In this document: positions 1 to 6,659 of the stretch, one piece after another
How the letters are laid out: the number at the start of each line of letters is the position of its first letter
Position numbering within the stretch: position 1 is the first letter of the stretch
IMG/VR virus record: IMGVR_UViG_3300018467_000013
Direction: 5' to 3' (one strand)
Length of the DNA stretch: 6,659 bases
DNA from: a virus
Lineage: Duplodnaviria > Heunggongvirae > Uroviricota > Caudoviricetes
Notes under the pieces: generated by a model
Told to the model about the DNA's origin: nothing
The model's database searches: none
The model's input: only the letters and a program-made list of their open reading frames with translations
Program-made: the position numbers and the translations under genes

Positions 1-804
1 ATGCTGCTGACCCGTGCTGATATGGAAGACCGTGAACGCTTCCTGAACGCCCGCGACACCCTGCGTGCGTTGCTCGATAACAATATCGTTCCGGTAATCA
101 ATGAGAACGATGCTGTCGCTACGGCAGAGATTAAGGTCGGCGATAACGATAACCTTTCTGCGCTGGCGGCGATTCTGGCGGGTGCCGATAAACTGTTGCT
201 GCTGACCGATCAAAAAGGTTTGTATACCGCTGATCCGCGCAGCAATCCGCAGGCAGAACTGATTAAAGATGTTTACGGCATTGATGACGCACTGCGCGCG
301 ATTGCCGGTGACAGCGTTTCAGGCCTCGGAACTGGCGGCATGAGTACCAAATTGCAGGCCGCTGACGTGGCTTGCCGTGCGGGTATCGACACCATTATTG
401 CCGCGGGCAGCAAGCCGGGCGTTATTGGTGATGTGATGGAAGGCATTTCCGTCGGTACGCTGTTCCATGCCCAGGCGACTCCGCTTGAAAACCGTAAACG
501 CTGGATTTTCGGTGCGCCGCCGGCGGGTGAAATCACGGTAGATGAAGGGGCAACTGCCGCCATTCTTGAACGCGGCAGCTCCCTGTTGCCGAAAGGCATT
601 AAAAGCGTGACTGGCAATTTCTCGCGTGGTGAAGTCATCCGCATTTGCAACCTCGAAGGTCGCGATATCGCCCACGGCGTCAGTCGTTACAACAGCGATG
701 CATTACGCCGTATTGCCGGGCACCACTCGCAAGAAATTGATGCAATACTGGGATATGAATACGGCCCGGTTGCCGTTCACCGTGATGACATGATTACCCG
801 TTAA
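1..804 (+). CDS. proB: Glutamate 5-kinase (ProB), C-terminal ~267 aa; 5' end lies outside the window (the Met at position 1 is internal)
   Basis: Translation reads as the amino-acid-kinase C-terminal half plus a PUA-like tail of enterobacterial ProB. TAA stop at 802-804 is followed 11 bp later by the proA start with a GGAG ribosome-binding site, the conserved proBA arrangement. Codon usage is host-like. Confidence 0.9.
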
Positions 805-815
805 GGAGCAGGCTG

Positions 816-2069
816 ATGCTGGAACAAATGGGCATTGCCGCGAAGCAAGCCTCGTATAAATTAGCGCAACTCTCCAGCCGCGAAAAAAATCGCGTGCTGG
901 AAAAAATCGCCGATGAACTGGAAGCACAAAGCGAAATCATCCTCAACGCTAACGCCCAGGATGTTGCTGACGCGCGTGCCAATGGCCTTGGCGAAGCGAT
1001 GCTTGACCGTCTGGCACTGACGCCCGCACGGCTGAAAGGCATTGCCGATGATGTGCGCCAGGTGTGTAACCTCGCCGATCCGGTGGGGCAGGTAATCGAT
1101 GGCAGCGTACTGGACAGCGGCCTGCGTCTTGAGCGTCGTCGCGTACCGCTGGGGGTTATTGGCGTGATTTATGAAGCGCGCCCGAACGTGACGGTTGATG
1201 TCGCTTCGCTGTGCCTGAAAACCGGTAATGCGGTGATCCTGCGCGGTGGCAAAGAAACGTGTCGCACTAACGCTGCAACGGTGGCGGTGATTCAGGACGC
1301 CCTGAAATCCTGCGGCTTACCGGCGGGTGCCGTGCAGGCGATTGATAATCCTGACCGTGCGCTGGTCAGTGAAATGCTGCGTATGGATAAATACATCGAC
1401 ATGCTGATCCCGCGTGGTGGCGCTGGTTTGCATAAACTGTGCCGTGAACAGTCGACAATCCCGGTGATCACAGGTGGTATAGGCGTATGCCATATTTACG
1501 TTGATGAAAGTGTAGAGATCGCTGAAGCATTAAAAGTGATCGTCAACGCGAAAACTCAGCGTCCGAGCACATGTAATACGGTTGAAACGTTGCTGGTGAA
1601 TAAAAACATCGCCGATAGCTTCCTGCCCGCATTAAGCAAACAAATGGCGGAAAGCGGCGTGACATTACACGCAGATGCAGCTGCACTGGCGCAGTTGCAG
1701 GCAGGCCCTGCGAAGGTGGTTGCTGTTAAAGCCGAAGAGTATGACGATGAGTTTCTGTCATTAGATTTGAACGTCAAAATCGTCAGCGATCTTGACGATG
1801 CCATCGCCCATATTCGTGAACACGGCACACAACACTCCGATGCGATCCTGACCCGCGATATGCGCAACGCCCAGCGTTTTGTTAACGAAGTGGATTCGTC
1901 CGCTGTTTACGTTAACGCCTCTACGCGTTTTACCGACGGCGGCCAGTTTGGTCTGGGTGCGGAAGTGGCGGTAAGCACACAAAAACTCCACGCGCGTGGC
2001 CCAATGGGGCTGGAAGCACTGACCACTTACAAGTGGATCGGCATTGGTGATTACACCATTCGTGCGTAA
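816..2069 (+). CDS. proA: Gamma-glutamyl phosphate reductase (glutamate-5-semialdehyde dehydrogenase)
   Basis: 417-aa ORF immediately downstream of proB. The translation ([37 protein letters not shown]...) is recognised as enterobacterial ProA, an aldehyde-dehydrogenase-family protein. GGAG ribosome-binding site sits 7-8 bp upstream and G+C is high, as in the host. Confidence 0.93.
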
Positions 2070-2114
2070 ATAAAACCGGGTGATGCAAAAGTAGCCATTT
2101 GATTCACAAGGCCA

Positions 2115-2143
2115 TTGACGCATCGCCCGGTTAGTTTTAACCT
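2115..2143 (+). promoter_or_regulatory. Putative sigma70 promoter for thrW (TTGACG -35, 17-bp spacer, TAACCT -10)
   Basis: TTGACG at 2115-2120 and TAACCT at 2138-2143 by eye, about 40 bp upstream of the mature tRNA 5' end and followed by GC-rich sequence. Motif match only; the -10 is weak. Confidence 0.3.
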
Positions 2144-2183
2144 TGTCCACCGTGATTCACGTTCGTGAACATGTCCTTTCAGG

Positions 2184-2259
2184 GCCGATATAGCTCAGTT
2201 GGTAGAGCAGCGCATTCGTAATGCGAAGGTCGTAGGTTCGACTCCTATTATCGGCACCA
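2184..2259 (+). tRNA. thrW: tRNA-Thr, anticodon CGU
   Basis: 76-nt sequence GCCGATATAGCTCAGTTGGTAGAGCAGCGCATTCGTAATGCGAAGGTCGTAGGTTCGACTCCTATTATCGGCACCA folds as a cloverleaf: 7-bp acceptor stem (GCCGATA/TATCGGC), D-arm AGCTC/GAGC, anticodon loop TTCGTAA with CGT, T-arm GTAGG/CCTAT with TTCGACT loop, encoded CCA end. Position directly downstream of proA matches the thrW locus. Confidence 0.92.
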
Positions 2260-2262
2260 TTC

Positions 2263-2425
2263 TAACGTCTCCCCAAGTCTACTCAAGTATTTAAAAACCT
2301 CTTATAATCCGCATGTTAGCGCCCCTTTTAGTCTTTTGACGTCTACTTAAGTACCCCAAAATCTACAGTCAATTGGGGGTACTTTTGGGGGTATTTGCTG
2401 TTCGGTTTAGTGGAGGTACCCCCAA
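2263..2425. repeat. attL-proximal repeat cluster, candidate integrase arm-type and excisionase binding sites
   Basis: Direct repeats GTCTACT(C/T)AAGTA at 2277-2289 and 2341-2353. G5TA/TAC5 motifs in inverted pairs: GTACCCCAAAA 2351-2361 with TTTTGGGGGTA 2384-2394, and TTGGGGGTAC 2373-2382 with GGTACCCCCAA 2416-2425. The last copy overlaps the integrase ribosome-binding site and GTG start. Confidence 0.5.
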
Positions 2426-3640
2426 GTGAAACTCAATGCCCGTCAAATAGACACTGCCAAGCCAAAAGAGAAGGCTTACAAGCTGGCTGATGGTGGTGGT
2501 CTGTATCTCCTGGTAAAACCTAGTGGAGGAAAATACTGGCGCTTTAAATATCGTGTAGCTGGTAAAGAGAAGCTGTTAGCACTAGGTGTGTATCCTGAAG
2601 TTACCTTGGCTGATGCTCGTGCAAAACGTGAAGAAGCTAAAAGGGGTATCGCTGGGGGTATCGATCCGATGGAAGCGAAACGAGAGGAAAAGATTGCCCG
2701 GGAAACGCAGTTAAACAATACCTTCAAAGATATTGCCCTTGAGTGGCACAGCAGCAAATTAAAAAAATGGTCTGCTGGTTATGCTTCAGATATCCTCGAA
2801 GCCTTCAACAAAGATGTGTTCCCTTACATTGGCAAAAAACCAATTGCCGAAATCAAACCACTTGAACTTCTGAATGTGCTGCGACGCATCGAGGGGCGCG
2901 GTGCTACAGAAAAAGCCAAAAAAGTGAGGCAGCGGTGCGGGGAAGTTTTCCGCTATGCAATAGTCACTGGTCGCGCAGAGTATAACCCTGCCCCAGATCT
3001 TACTAGCGCGATGCAAGGCCATGAATCTAATCATTATCCTTTCCTCACAGCCAAAGAATTGCCTGATTTTTTCAAGGCATTGTCCAGTTACTCAGGAAGT
3101 GCATTGGTTGTTATGGCGGCTCGTCTACTGATTATCACTGGTTTGCGAACTGGCGAACTGCGCGGTGCATTATGGGATGAAATCGATCTCAACAAGGCTA
3201 TCTGGGAGATACCTGCTTCACGGATGAAAATGCGTCGCCCTCATGTGGTGCCTTTGTCTAAGCAGGCTCTTTCTCTTATTGGGCAGATTAAAGAATTAAC
3301 TGGTAATTATCCGCTTATGTTTCCCGGCCGTAATGATCCAAGGAAAACAATGAGCGAGGCTAGCATAAACCAAGTATTTAAACGCATCGGCTATAACGGA
3401 AAGGTTACTGGTCATGGATTCCGGCACACCATGAGCACGATTTTACATGAGCAGGGCTATAACACCGCGTGGATAGAAACGCAGCTTGCACACGTTGATA
3501 AGAACTCAATTCGTGGCACGTACAATCATGCGCAATATCTGGACGGGCGGCGCGAGATGCTCCAGTGGTACGCCGACTATATGGATTCGCTCGAACATGG
3601 CGGTAACGTGGTGCATGGCAAGTTCGGAAAATGTGGATGA
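2426..3640 (+). CDS. Site-specific tyrosine recombinase, P4-family phage integrase
   Basis: 404-aa ORF with GTG start and a GGAGGT ribosome-binding site 8 bp upstream. The N-terminus (KLADGGGLYLLVKPSGGKYWRFKYRVAGKEKLLALGVYPEV) resembles the arm-binding domain of P4-type integrases. The C-terminal catalytic domain carries conserved R (RTGELRGALWDEIDL), the H-x-x-R box (HGFRHT) and the tyrosine nucleophile region (RGTYNHAQY). The gene is adjacent to the tRNA. Confidence 0.92.
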   Translation: MKLNARQIDTAKPKEKAYKLADGGGLYLLVKPSGGKYWRFKYRVAGKEKLLALGVYPEVTLADARAKREEAKRGIAGGIDPMEAKREEKIARETQLNNTFKDIALEWHSSKLKKWSAGYASDILEAFNKDVFPYIGKKPIAEIKPLELLNVLRRIEGRGATEKAKKVRQRCGEVFRYAIVTGRAEYNPAPDLTSAMQGHESNHYPFLTAKELPDFFKALSSYSGSALVVMAARLLIITGLRTGELRGALWDEIDLNKAIWEIPASRMKMRRPHVVPLSKQALSLIGQIKELTGNYPLMFPGRNDPRKTMSEASINQVFKRIGYNGKVTGHGFRHTMSTILHEQGYNTAWIETQLAHVDKNSIRGTYNHAQYLDGRREMLQWYADYMDSLEHGGNVVHGKFGKCG

Positions 3641-3762
3641 CTGGTTGCGTATACAGTAGTAGACTTTGAGCGACGAAAGAAAAGGCTGTGTCTAGGGTCG
3701 CTCCCGAAAATCCGTACACCTCGACGGACTGGTACAGCCACTACAGTAGAGGACGCTGAGGT

Positions 3763-4566
3763 GTGCGTATGATTGATATTCATGCCGAATTAAACGAATA
3801 CAAAAAAGATTTTATTTCTTTACGTGAATTTCTTGAGGTCGTGCTTAAGGTCGCTGGTGATGATTATGATGTTTCAGATGTCATAACTTGGATACTCAGG
3901 AGAATAAGCGGAGAACATATCCGCCTGTACACAGTAAATGAATTTAAGCTGTTGGAATCTTTTTGTAACCCGTATCGGGATGAATTTGATTATGATGTTC
4001 TTTATAGAAATCTGAATGCGGTTCGGAAACGTGGTTGTTTACCTGGTGAGAGGGATGAAAATGGTTTTCTGGTGTCCGGTTATTGGGAAGATCCCGAATT
4101 TGAGAACATTGGATTTATAAGGGGTGAAATTTTCGCAATTTTTCCCGATGTCCTTGACGCGTTAACGAAGCTGGAAGGCGCTAACTCTTCTGAAAATGAC
4201 GAGGCACAAGGACGCGATATTGAAAAGAAAGAGTTGCGTACAGAGGATGATTTATTATCCCAAATCGCAATGCTGGAAAAAGAAAACGCAGAGTTAAGGG
4301 CAAGGATAGAGCAGTTAGAGCAAGAGCGCCCGATACACTTATATAAATACTGGGATAAAGACCCATTAGCTAAGGCTATTGAGATTAGAAACAGAGAGTG
4401 GGCCAATTACGATCCAGAAAATGATTTTGCCACCAGGGGAAATCAAGAAGCGATAACCAGGGAGCTTAAGCAGTGGGGGGCAAGTAATGCACTTGCAACG
4501 CTCATAGAGAGGACTGCCTGCCCTATTAACCGAGACAACAGCCAAAAGAACGCAAAGCCGGATTAA
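3763..4566 (+). CDS. Hypothetical acidic coiled-coil protein (267 aa), orphan island cargo of unknown function
   Basis: Clean 804-bp ORF with GAGGT ribosome-binding site 7 bp before the ATG. It is strongly AT-rich relative to its flanks. The protein has a large excess of D/E over K/R, a central heptad-like segment (LLSQIAMLEKENAELRARIEQLEQER), and no Walker A, HTH or other motif I can recognise. It sits in the first cargo slot downstream of the integrase. Confidence 0.7.
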   Translation: MRMIDIHAELNEYKKDFISLREFLEVVLKVAGDDYDVSDVITWILRRISGEHIRLYTVNEFKLLESFCNPYRDEFDYDVLYRNLNAVRKRGCLPGERDENGFLVSGYWEDPEFENIGFIRGEIFAIFPDVLDALTKLEGANSSENDEAQGRDIEKKELRTEDDLLSQIAMLEKENAELRARIEQLEQERPIHLYKYWDKDPLAKAIEIRNREWANYDPENDFATRGNQEAITRELKQWGASNALATLIERTACPINRDNSQKNAKPD

Positions 4567-4581
4567 CGCACCATACCGCAT

Positions 4582-4723
4582 ACCCTGAGGGTGATTTACT
4601 GTTACCCTGAGGGTATTTTTTATCTTCCCCGTCAATTTTACCATCACCCTTAGGGTAGATTTCCTCCCGATTACCATCACCCTTAGGGTTAATTTCCTTC
4701 CGGTAACCATTAGGCCTGAGGGT
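4582..4723. repeat. Phased array of five near-palindromic 11-mers ACCCT(G/T)AGGGT, including 2.5 tandem copies of a ~33-bp unit; candidate operator or iteron array
   Basis: Copies at 4582-4592 and 4604-4614 (ACCCTGAGGGT), 4646-4656 and 4679-4689 (ACCCTTAGGGT, each within TTACCATCACCCTTAGGGT), and a degenerate copy at 4713-4723 (GGCCTGAGGGT). Start-to-start spacings are 22, 42, 33 and 34 bp, roughly whole helical turns. The array lies in the 226-bp gap between the orphan gene and alpA. Confidence 0.65.
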
Positions 4724-4792
4724 ATGAAAATATTCGTTATTTCTGTGCCATGATTACCTCGTCAAATTGAGTAGACGTTATGAGGTAAATAT

Positions 4793-4990
4793 ATGTCAAA
4801 TACGCTTATTCGTTTAACAGAAGTTCAGCGTAGAACTGGATATAGCAAGGCATGGATTTATCGCCTTATGGGGCAAGGTAAATTTCCTGTATCAGTTAAA
4901 ATTGGCTCGCGAGCTATTGCTTTCGTTGAGAGTGAAATTGACGAGTGGATTAATCAGCGTATTGCGGAATCACGCGGAACAGCTACCTGA
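4793..4990 (+). CDS. alpA: AlpA-family phage/island transcriptional regulator (Vis/Xis-like, MerR-type HTH)
   Basis: 65-aa ORF with GAGGT ribosome-binding site 9 bp upstream. The sequence LIRLTEVQRRTGYSKAWIYRLMGQGKFPVSVKIGSRAIAFVESEIDEWINQR matches the AlpA/Vis family signature (HTH followed by the ESEIDEW motif). Such genes typically sit near P4-type integrases. Confidence 0.85.
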   Translation: MSNTLIRLTEVQRRTGYSKAWIYRLMGQGKFPVSVKIGSRAIAFVESEIDEWINQRIAESRGTAT

Positions 4991-5067
4991 TTAAATGGCT
5001 ACGGGGCTATTGCCCCCAGCTATCCACCAGCAAATAAAAGTAACTTAATTCGATAGCAGGAGTTTTT

Positions 5068-5868
5068 ATGAAATTTCCAAAAACGCCCGTACAGGGGCGG
5101 GGCTTCGTTCGGCCTGAAAACCAGAATCTGCAAAATTTCGGCGAAATTATCCCGATTATTTCCGGCGTTATTGGCGGGAGTGAAACCACTATTGTTAGCG
5201 CCAGAGCGTTACATAAGGCGTTAGGTGTAGGGCGCGTTTTCCGTTCGTGGATCAAGGGGCGCATTGAAGAATACGGGTTCACGGAAGGCGTGGATTATGA
5301 GGTTGTTGAATATTTGAGCCGACCCGATCCGGTGAGCGCAAAATCTCGCCAGCAAACCGCTCTTGAGTACATCATCACAGTGAACATGGCGAAAGAACTG
5401 GCGATGGTCGAACGTACCGAACAGGGCCGCGCCGTTCGCCAGTACTTTATCAAATGCGAGGAGGAGCTACACAAGGTTGCGCCTGTTCGTTCCGCAGCGT
5501 TACGCCGGGAACTGAAAGCCCGTATCACAGTTGCCAGCTACTTTAAGCCAATGTGTGCCGCGCTGGAGGCGTACCGGGCTGAACTGGGTAAAAACACGTT
5601 CCAGCACCACTACACCACGGAAGCCAATATGCTGGCGCGTATCGTGCTGGGTGGCATGACTGCAAAACAGTGGGCGCAGGCGAACGGCATCACAGGCGAA
5701 CCACGCGACCACATGAGCACGTTGCAGCTTGAGCACCTTTCTTACCTTGAGCAGAGCAATATCACGCTGATTGAGTTAGGCCAGGGCTACCACCAGCGGA
5801 AAGCTGAATTAATTCGTCTTTCGCAGCGTTGGTTAGCCCGTCGCATGGAGGAAAACAGCCATGTGTAA
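5068..5868 (+). CDS. Phage antirepressor-like protein with AntA/AntB-type N-terminal domain
   Basis: 266-aa ORF with AGGAG ribosome-binding site 7 bp upstream. The N-terminal segment SARALHKALGVGRVFRSWIKGRIEEYGFTEGVDYEV resembles the AntA/AntB antirepressor domain consensus. G+C is closer to host-like, and the gene is co-directional with alpA. Family assignment is from memory of the domain signature, not from a search. Confidence 0.65.
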   Translation: MKFPKTPVQGRGFVRPENQNLQNFGEIIPIISGVIGGSETTIVSARALHKALGVGRVFRSWIKGRIEEYGFTEGVDYEVVEYLSRPDPVSAKSRQQTALEYIITVNMAKELAMVERTEQGRAVRQYFIKCEEELHKVAPVRSAALRRELKARITVASYFKPMCAALEAYRAELGKNTFQHHYTTEANMLARIVLGGMTAKQWAQANGITGEPRDHMSTLQLEHLSYLEQSNITLIELGQGYHQRKAELIRLSQRWLARRMEENSHV

Positions 5869-6628
5869 CGCTCTGACCGTTACAAAAAGAGAAAGCGCCC
5901 CGTTGCCGGAGCGCCTTTGTGAACGAATAGCCTACTGCGCCATATTGCTTACTGTCTACGAGGCAGATTATAGCGTTGTGGTCGCACAGAGTGAAGGCAC
6001 TGATCACCGTTACTACAGCACGCCAGAAATGCAGAATATTTCGCTGCAAAATGCCGTTGGCCACGCTGTCCGGAAAGCAAAAAATTTTGCTGGTGGCGTG
6101 ACTGATGCGATTTTGTCAGGTCACCAGGTGCTGATCAATCTGATGTCTGATTTCGTTCTGGATAAAACAAAGGCGACTGCAGAGGGCCACCAGTGGGAAA
6201 GCTACACACTTGAACACATTGCCAACAATGCCAGATTTGCGGCTGGTGGGCAATGTGATCAGTGTGCTGGCTTGCTGGTGGGCTATTCATGCTCTTTAAC
6301 ATTGCCATGCCGCGATGTTTTCCAGGTATGTGATCCCATTTTTGTGCGCCTGTACTCTTTAAGGAATTGCTCAAGGGCAAAAGCACATGGCGCGAATCTT
6401 TCTGATTCATGCTCTATCTTTCTGCGCCGTCTTTTCCGTGCCGGTGATAATGTTTTGGTCAATTCTTTATCGGTCATTGTGTTGTCCTGCATAGCAATGC
6501 GCCGTAATACCTTACACCACGGCGCTGATGGTGATTACTCTGGTTCTTTGGTCTTGCGACGCTGGAGTTCTTCGCGTGCAACGGTGACAAGCTGCCCGAT
6601 TTCTTCCGCTGCTTTGATGCCGATTTGA
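5861..6628 (+). CDS. Uncertain ORF; the 5' portion (to about 6300) may be a real coupled gene, the 3' portion is probably non-coding read-through
   Basis: The ATG at 5861 overlaps the upstream stop in ATGTGTAA, a translational-coupling arrangement. The ORF has no stop until a TGA formed at the adapter junction (6626-6628). Its last ~100 codons are rich in rare codons (AGG, ATA, TCA) and give a Cys/Ser/Arg/Leu-rich translation, whereas the opposite strand reads as a plausible protein C-terminus. Confidence 0.3.
   Translation: MCNALTVTKRESAPLPERLCERIAYCAILLTVYEADYSVVVAQSEGTDHRYYSTPEMQNISLQNAVGHAVRKAKNFAGGVTDAILSGHQVLINLMSDFVLDKTKATAEGHQWESYTLEHIANNARFAAGGQCDQCAGLLVGYSCSLTLPCRDVFQVCDPIFVRLYSLRNCSRAKAHGANLSDSCSIFLRRLFRAGDNVLVNSLSVIVLSCIAMRRNTLHHGADGDYSGSLVLRRWSSSRATVTSCPISSAALMPI
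6535..6627 (-). CDS. C-terminal fragment (30 codons plus stop) of a convergent gene whose body lies beyond the contig end
   Basis: Reverse-complement translation from 6627 gives QIGIKAAEEIGQLVTVAREELQRRKTKEPE followed by TAA (6537-6535), using common host codons and with a protein-like amphipathic composition. The frame is open to the adapter junction. Confidence 0.35.
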   Translation of the reverse strand, partial: QIGIKAAEEIGQLVTVAREELQRRKTKEPE

Positions 6629-6659
6629 GATCGGAAGAGCACACGTCTGAACTCCAGTC
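6628..6659. other. Illumina TruSeq adapter sequence (technical artefact, not genomic)
   Basis: AGATCGGAAGAGCACACGTCTGAACTCCAGTC matches the standard TruSeq read-through adapter prefix exactly. Confidence 0.95.

Follow-up and report, generated by a model that had tools for sequence, protein, structure and literature searches.

An untrimmed Illumina adapter very probably forms the 3' end of an Escherichia coli thrW island contig

The stretch of DNA analyzed here (the window, 6659 nt) closes with 32 bases that raise a simple question: do they belong to the island that precedes them or to the library from which it was sequenced, and what does the answer imply for the genes and bases next to them? 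Apart from these bases the window is E. coli DNA, running from a partial proB through proA and the tRNA-Thr(CGT) gene thrW into an integrase-led island. The features of the island and its integration site are as follows.

2184..2259, plus strand: tRNA-Thr (CGT), thrW, integration site of the island
2426..5868, plus strand: retained left part of the island
2426-3640, plus strand: P4-type tyrosine integrase
3685-3752, plus strand: int-alpA RNA (Rfam RF02996, 45.5 bits versus a gathering threshold of 35.8), flanked by the integrase and 267-aa hypothetical genes
3763-4566, plus strand: hypothetical gene, 267 aa, conserved in these islands
4793-4990, plus strand: AlpA
5068-5868, plus strand: AntA-domain protein
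6283..6477, minus strand: small gene of 64 codons (phrog_21027), straddling the allele switch point described below

A tyrosine integrase beside a tRNA gene, together with an AlpA-type regulator, is consistent with a tRNA-integrated, satellite-like island (P4-like or PICI-like). The 267-aa protein has no Pfam, NCBIfam, or PHROG match. The primase and the att repeats lie outside the window, and relatives carry a D5_N/DUF5906 primase. Known thrW phage-satellite-like islands (TUM9757, 55989, and GCA_050243355.1) encode an integrase, AlpA, AntA, YlcI, an Icd-like protein, DUF4222, a D5-type primase, ProQ, and PerC. Beyond ylcI, the TUM9757 island continues with an Icd-like gene, several small ORFs, and the genes for DUF4222, the D5-type primase, ProQ, PerC, and more, and two near-clonal drafts, L008 (GCA_050243355.1) and L011 (GCA_012067315.1), share its island gene order. 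The window follows this same order and is 100% identical to L008 and L011 over 1-5870, with one difference over 5871-6448; in its last 179 bp the allele type changes.

An automated repeat search returned no perfect attR repeat; inspection by hand located an imperfect 18-nt copy of the tRNA 3' end that lacks one base (TCCTATTATCG-CACCATT; L002 29915-29932) and is likely attR. From this copy and the gene content of relatives, the region measures ∼15.7 kb, of which the window holds ∼4.4 kb. Thus ∼11 kb of the thrW island is missing and ∼28% is retained, in agreement with an earlier reading of the window, made from its letters alone, that the island is incomplete at the junction. Two further observations concern the architecture of these islands. 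Just inside the putative attR of L002 lies a degraded second integrase (29128-29504), which suggests a composite or tandem island in TUM9757. Just upstream of alpA are two tandem 33-nt direct repeats that are 88% identical (L002 16639-16704, approximately 4638-4703 in the window) and that could be a candidate binding site for a regulator or an arm-type site for the integrase.

The terminal bases themselves can be matched exactly to a laboratory oligonucleotide. The 3' end of the window reads ...GCTTTGATGCCGATTTG up to G6627 and then AGATCGGAAGAGCACACGTCTGAACTCCAGTC, so that native GCCGATTTG gives way to AGATCGGAAGAGC... at the junction. The feature at issue is therefore:

6628..6659, plus strand: Illumina TruSeq-type indexed adapter (P7 side), leading 32 nt in read-1 read-through form, non-biological, exact over 32/32 positions

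The read-1 adapter is AGATCGGAAGAGCACACGTCTGAACTCCAGTCA and the read-2 adapter is AGATCGGAAGAGCGTCGTGTAGGGAAAGAGTGT, as given in a trimming-software paper (PMC10038132). Templates for NEBNext index primers also terminate in the TruSeq-type read-1 adapter sequence. Against the TruSeq indexed adapter, that is, the read-1 trimming sequence AGATCGGAAGAGCACACGTCTGAACTCCAGTCA(C), the window is identical over all 32 available bases, which are the first 32 of the 34 pre-index bases. The adapter opening AGATCGGAAGAGC, made up of the A-tail base and the common 12-mer, stands directly after the insert and is exact at 6628-6640. From there the sequence runs on as ACACGTCTGAACTCCAGTCAC, the indexed or P7 side, and not as GTCGTGTAGGGAAAGAGTGT, the universal or P5 side; it takes the branch CACACGTCTG... 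shared with the read-1 adapter, which separates it from the read-2 branch GTCGTGTAGG..., and the longest prefix match is accordingly 32 nt to the read-1 adapter versus 13 nt to the read-2 adapter. The copy in the window stops 1 to 2 nt before the index and has neither index nor P7 tail, unlike the full copy in MK249308.1. Allowing up to three mismatches, the 32-mer has a single match in the window on both strands, and 200 dinucleotide-preserving shuffles yielded no match. The window, its 5' end included, contains no further Illumina, Nextera, P5, or P7 piece. It should be noted that this string is common to TruSeq and TruSeq-compatible kits (e.g., NEBNext), so that the type of adapter is identified and the kit is not.

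To place the junction, the window was compared with E. coli DNA. Of 5426 complete E. coli genomes, 5413 match the window, and among the full-length matches listed all end at or before 6626. Most of the last 248 native bases are present in 287 genomes, and O157:H7, O26, and O103 strains are 100% identical up to G6627. The closest allele, L003 (O157:H7 PV15-279), is 100% identical over 6349-6627 and then reads TTCGACCTTAGCC; past 6627 it runs on TTCGACCTTAGCCAGGGC... (TTCGACC...), where the window has AGATCGG..., while TUM9757 and JNU run on TTTTCCACCTGCGCC... after the equivalent position. Because the native alleles diverge from the window after 6627, the junction falls between 6627 and 6628, which bears out its earlier placement at 6628. 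At 6628-6659 there is no homology to the genome of the organism, and relatives carry other sequence there. The 12-mer core AGATCGGAAGAG is absent from 17 independent loci of the island family (∼300 kb), and a 31-mer spanning the junction is absent from genome, viral, and metagenome contig collections. For AntA and the 267-aa protein, exact-product searches found no record other than those of relatives; the product of the adapter-terminated forward ORF had no exact match in the databases, nor did the 69-aa version of a small minus-strand ORF.

These comparisons leave virtually no room for the reading that the 32 bases come genuinely from the E. coli genome or the island, in favour of which nothing was found. 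By arithmetic, an exact 32-mer is expected by chance ∼7e-16 times in 2 x 6659 positions, the 32-mer occurs in no related genome or locus, and the relatives carry at this place ylcI coding sequence that is under purifying selection. Nor would genuine island DNA account for the recurrence of the same string at the record termini of unrelated phages, even of the RNA phage MS2. The genuine-DNA reading is effectively already refuted.

This recurrence extends to 17 phage records from at least nine unrelated host genera, and among the 15 matches listed, 12 are no more than 100 nt away from a record end. The hosts include Staphylococcus, Bacillus, Vibrio, Mycobacterium, Caulobacter, Klebsiella, Salmonella, and Paenibacillus, with the RNA phage MS2 in addition, and what these records share with the end of the window is the adapter itself only. 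Recurrence across unrelated records is the signature of a laboratory oligonucleotide. The record of Vibrio phage ValB1MD-2 terminates on the identical 32-mer, Salmonella phage TS13 (MK249308.1) carries the whole construct (the 32-mer, AC, the index CTTGTA, and P7 ATCTCGTATGCCGTCTTCTGCTTG), and Mycobacterium phage Kashi_RDG1 carries an adapter-dimer palindrome. Internal copies occur in ON551388.1 (at 141731 of 155659) and KY555145.1 (at 150511 of 229319). With the exact string, the published read-1 adapter, and the full construct of MK249308.1 in agreement, the identification of the last 32 bases as TruSeq adapter read-through in the sequence-only reading is upheld, and we are close to certain that 6628-6659 is untrimmed Illumina adapter assembled onto the contig.

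As a separate observation, several phage genomes deposited as complete carry terminal adapter: KY442063.1/NC_047813.1 (24-59), MK249308.1 (1-67), MT662115.1 (36584-36616), and ON687736.1 (1-86). The record of Staphylococcus phage Andhra contains the adapter twice, and a repeat_region is annotated over it; some of the terminal repeat annotated there may therefore be adapter. Adapter and barcode remnants in assemblies are a class targeted by the NCBI adaptor screens. Contamination of GenBank by ONT adapters has been surveyed (PMC13182109), and these remnants are likewise synthetic oligonucleotides kept through incomplete trimming, mostly terminal, and spread across unrelated taxa; the remnant in the window differs in its Illumina origin and in its further effects, namely a false stop codon, a false start codon, and the truncation of a gene.

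How the adapter came to be there can be proposed from established knowledge of ligation-based Illumina libraries. The string identity, the exact junction, the non-homology to related genomes, and the recurrence at the ends of unrelated records are observed, whereas we infer the read-through and assembly steps. A library fragment would have ended at genomic base 6627, been A-tailed (A6628), and then been ligated to the indexed, P7-side adapter. With an insert shorter than the read, read 1 would have run off into the adapter, and the adapter-bearing reads would have been left untrimmed. Since k-mers across the junction would be unique, the assembler could have extended the contig into the adapter; pure-adapter k-mers, common to thousands of other junctions, would then make the graph branch and the contig stop. 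The 32-nt remnant may correspond to k-1 of a k=33 graph or, equally possibly, simply to the end of a read. Remnants in other records range from 32 nt to the full adapter; a single further record stops at the same adapter base and others run longer, which leaves the k=33 idea without firm support.

This route presumes that the contig, and not just the window, ends at 6659, which is probably the case. The alternative is a chimera in which the contig continues past 6659, the adapter joins an unrelated fragment, and the window happens to stop inside the adapter. The internal copies in ON551388.1 and KY555145.1 set a precedent for such an arrangement, but the odd window length of 6659 and the stop at adapter base 32 are in keeping with a sequence end, and most deposited remnants among the matches listed are terminal, as detailed above. 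We consider an internal chimera improbable and retain a terminal remnant as the working explanation.

The adapter creates several false gene calls at the junction and obscures a real one:

5861..6628, plus strand: mechanical forward ORF of the ORF listing, 255 codons, ended by the adapter-completed TGA
6626..6628, plus strand: false TGA stop, in which T6626 and G6627 are native and A6628 is the first adapter base (A-tail position)
6474..6644, minus strand: spurious ORF of 56 codons with a GTG start (6644-6642) inside the adapter
6535..6627, minus strand: truncated ylcI/ynfO-family gene, keeping the final 30 of its 101 codons and the stop

In the native O157-type allele, which is 100% identical up to the junction, positions 6626-6628 read TGT and the frame stays open. 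This agrees with the earlier observation that the TGA at 6626-6628 is completed by the first adapter base. Read in the ylcI frame, the adapter encodes LEFRRVLFRS, ten residues with an in-frame GTG. The warning that calls across 6628-6659 are artefactual thus holds for at least three possible calls: the false TGA, the false GTG start, and the LEFRRVLFRS extension.

The gene that is truly cut by the junction is the minus-strand ylcI/ynfO-family gene. Positions 6535-6627 translate as QIGIKAAEEIGQLVTVAREELQRRKTKEPE followed by a stop, the C-terminus of the 101-aa YlcI/YnfO-family protein of L003 (WP_000179579.1), with identity over 30/30 residues and 93/93 nt of the 3' end of the gene. WP_000179579.1 scores 63 bits versus a cut-off of 30 for NCBIfam NF041551 (YlcI_YnfO_N), which the full-length protein matches at residues 9-50; it also matches phrog_6522 over 1-101 with E = 1e-63. 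The YlcI_YnfO_N domain (profile 1-42) and the start codon lie beyond the junction and are missing from the window. The 30-aa fragment has no family match and does not itself contain the N-terminal domain, so that the fragment alone cannot be filed by HMM. Selection on the gene was estimated by the Nei-Gojobori method over its 306 bp, in which L002 and L003 have 62 differences. For this pair dN/dS is 0.13 in the annotated minus frame and 0.31 in the frame of the forward ORF, and the remaining four frames give values above 1.6 and contain stops. For two more allele pairs, the minus and forward frames give 0.25 versus 0.27 and 0.33 versus 0.45.

Over this stretch the forward ORF at 5861..6628 probably does not encode a protein. 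Searches of Pfam, NCBIfam, and PHROG gave no match to it, and its dN/dS is ∼0.95 upstream and 0.27-0.45 over ylcI, which is the level of a shadow; over ylcI the frame behaves as a phase-linked shadow or non-coding frame. The candidate of a real forward gene was rejected on the absence of a family match and the unfavourable dN/dS. The sequence-only reading was right that the stop of this ORF is made by the adapter, but the ORF is probably no gene and it is the minus-strand ylcI/ynfO gene that is cut.

The forward frame has a wider distribution that can be described in its own right. It starts at an ATG that overlaps the antA stop (ATGTGTAA, 5861-5868) and is stop-free for 426-598 codons in 13 of 14 intact loci, in five length variants, running antisense through two minus-strand genes and ending as an Icd-like division inhibitor. 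Examples are L002 17862-19394, L015 12068-13654, and L005 10794-12590. Its first ∼140 codons (420 nt) and a later gap of 62 codons (186 nt) have dN/dS of ∼0.7-1.0, and neither segment has family matches; the upstream part of the frame thus shows no constraint on its amino acids. The annotation of E. coli 55989 calls the frame as a 528-aa CDS; PGAP does not. One speculative interpretation, which we consider unlikely, is that the antA-to-icd frame is a translated leader, with the passage of ribosomes and not the protein product as the reason why it stays open. Such a leader could couple antA to icd or could prevent polarity across the convergent gene pair. Alternatively, the open frame may reflect chance plus shadow ORFs.

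The adapter remnant marks a weakly supported contig tip, which makes the neighbouring sequence suspect as well, and an allele switch lies within this region:

6349..6448: 100-bp block identical in both island types, the switch point
6449..6627: last 179 native bases, whose allele type differs from the rest of the window

Over 1-6448 the single difference between the window and L008 or L011 is at 6331, whereas over the last 179 bases there are 34-35 mismatches (the tail is 81% identical). These 179 bases match at 100% only in L003, an O157:H7 island that is integrated at tqsA. The combination of this left and this right part occurs in 0 of 5426 complete genomes, where the best full-length identity is 92%. 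T6331, at which all 10 loci covering the site have C, was considered as part of the O157-type tract and rejected, as that homology starts at 6349 and the loci have C.

A tentative explanation for the switch, to which we give a little less than even weight and which extends the adapter explanation, is that the assembler crossed the 100-bp block common to two co-resident satellite islands and then took a short, weakly supported tip of the other island, ending in an adapter-bearing read. On this view, neither the adapter nor bases 6449-6627 would belong to this locus. Such a misjoin is consistent with the near-identity of L008 and L011 up to 6448, with the differences that follow exactly where L003 is 100% identical, and with the failure to find the combination in any complete genome. 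Islands of this kind occupy up to four to five places per genome, and the contig dies in adapter 179 bp after the switch. Against a misjoin, a contig from a plain de Bruijn assembler would usually end on reaching a 100-bp repeat, JNU joins another left part to the same middle, and natural mosaicism in precisely this segment is seen in an independent assembly, L017 (GCA_049209735.1). This assembly is of the O157 type at 6449-6471 and of the L008 type from 6479, and it is the one independent assembly in which the exact 64-aa product encoded at 6283..6477 was found. Since L017 is a natural mosaic, 6449-6627 may instead be a real recombinant. More speculatively, and separately from the leader role proposed above, the 179-bp switch could be a real gene conversion between co-resident satellites.

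In L017 the segment (ABYMLX010000012.1, 6780-7337) belongs to a different satellite, with Bro-N in place of AntA, a DUF927 primase, SSB, and capsid. This satellite carries the same 64-aa gene together with a ylcI gene, and its recombination breakpoint lies between the window equivalents of 6471 and 6479. The ylcI/64-aa cassette thus seems to be exchanged among satellite families.

The adapter remnant is an ordinary and well-known class of artefact and not a biological feature, and it holds no biological novelty; its value is purely practical. The 32 bases are to be trimmed; neither the stop at 6626-6628 (TGA) nor the start at 6644-6642 (GTG) should be used, and the same holds for any partial gene extended into 6628-6659. 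An adapter-trimmed contig is expected to end at or before 6627 or to extend into ylcI (TTCGACC... or TTTTCCACC...). The untrustworthy zone may extend back to 6449, and bases 6449-6627 need confirmation from reads before they are used for allele or recombination analysis. The ylcI/ynfO gene is to be handled as 5'-truncated and the island as ∼28% complete.
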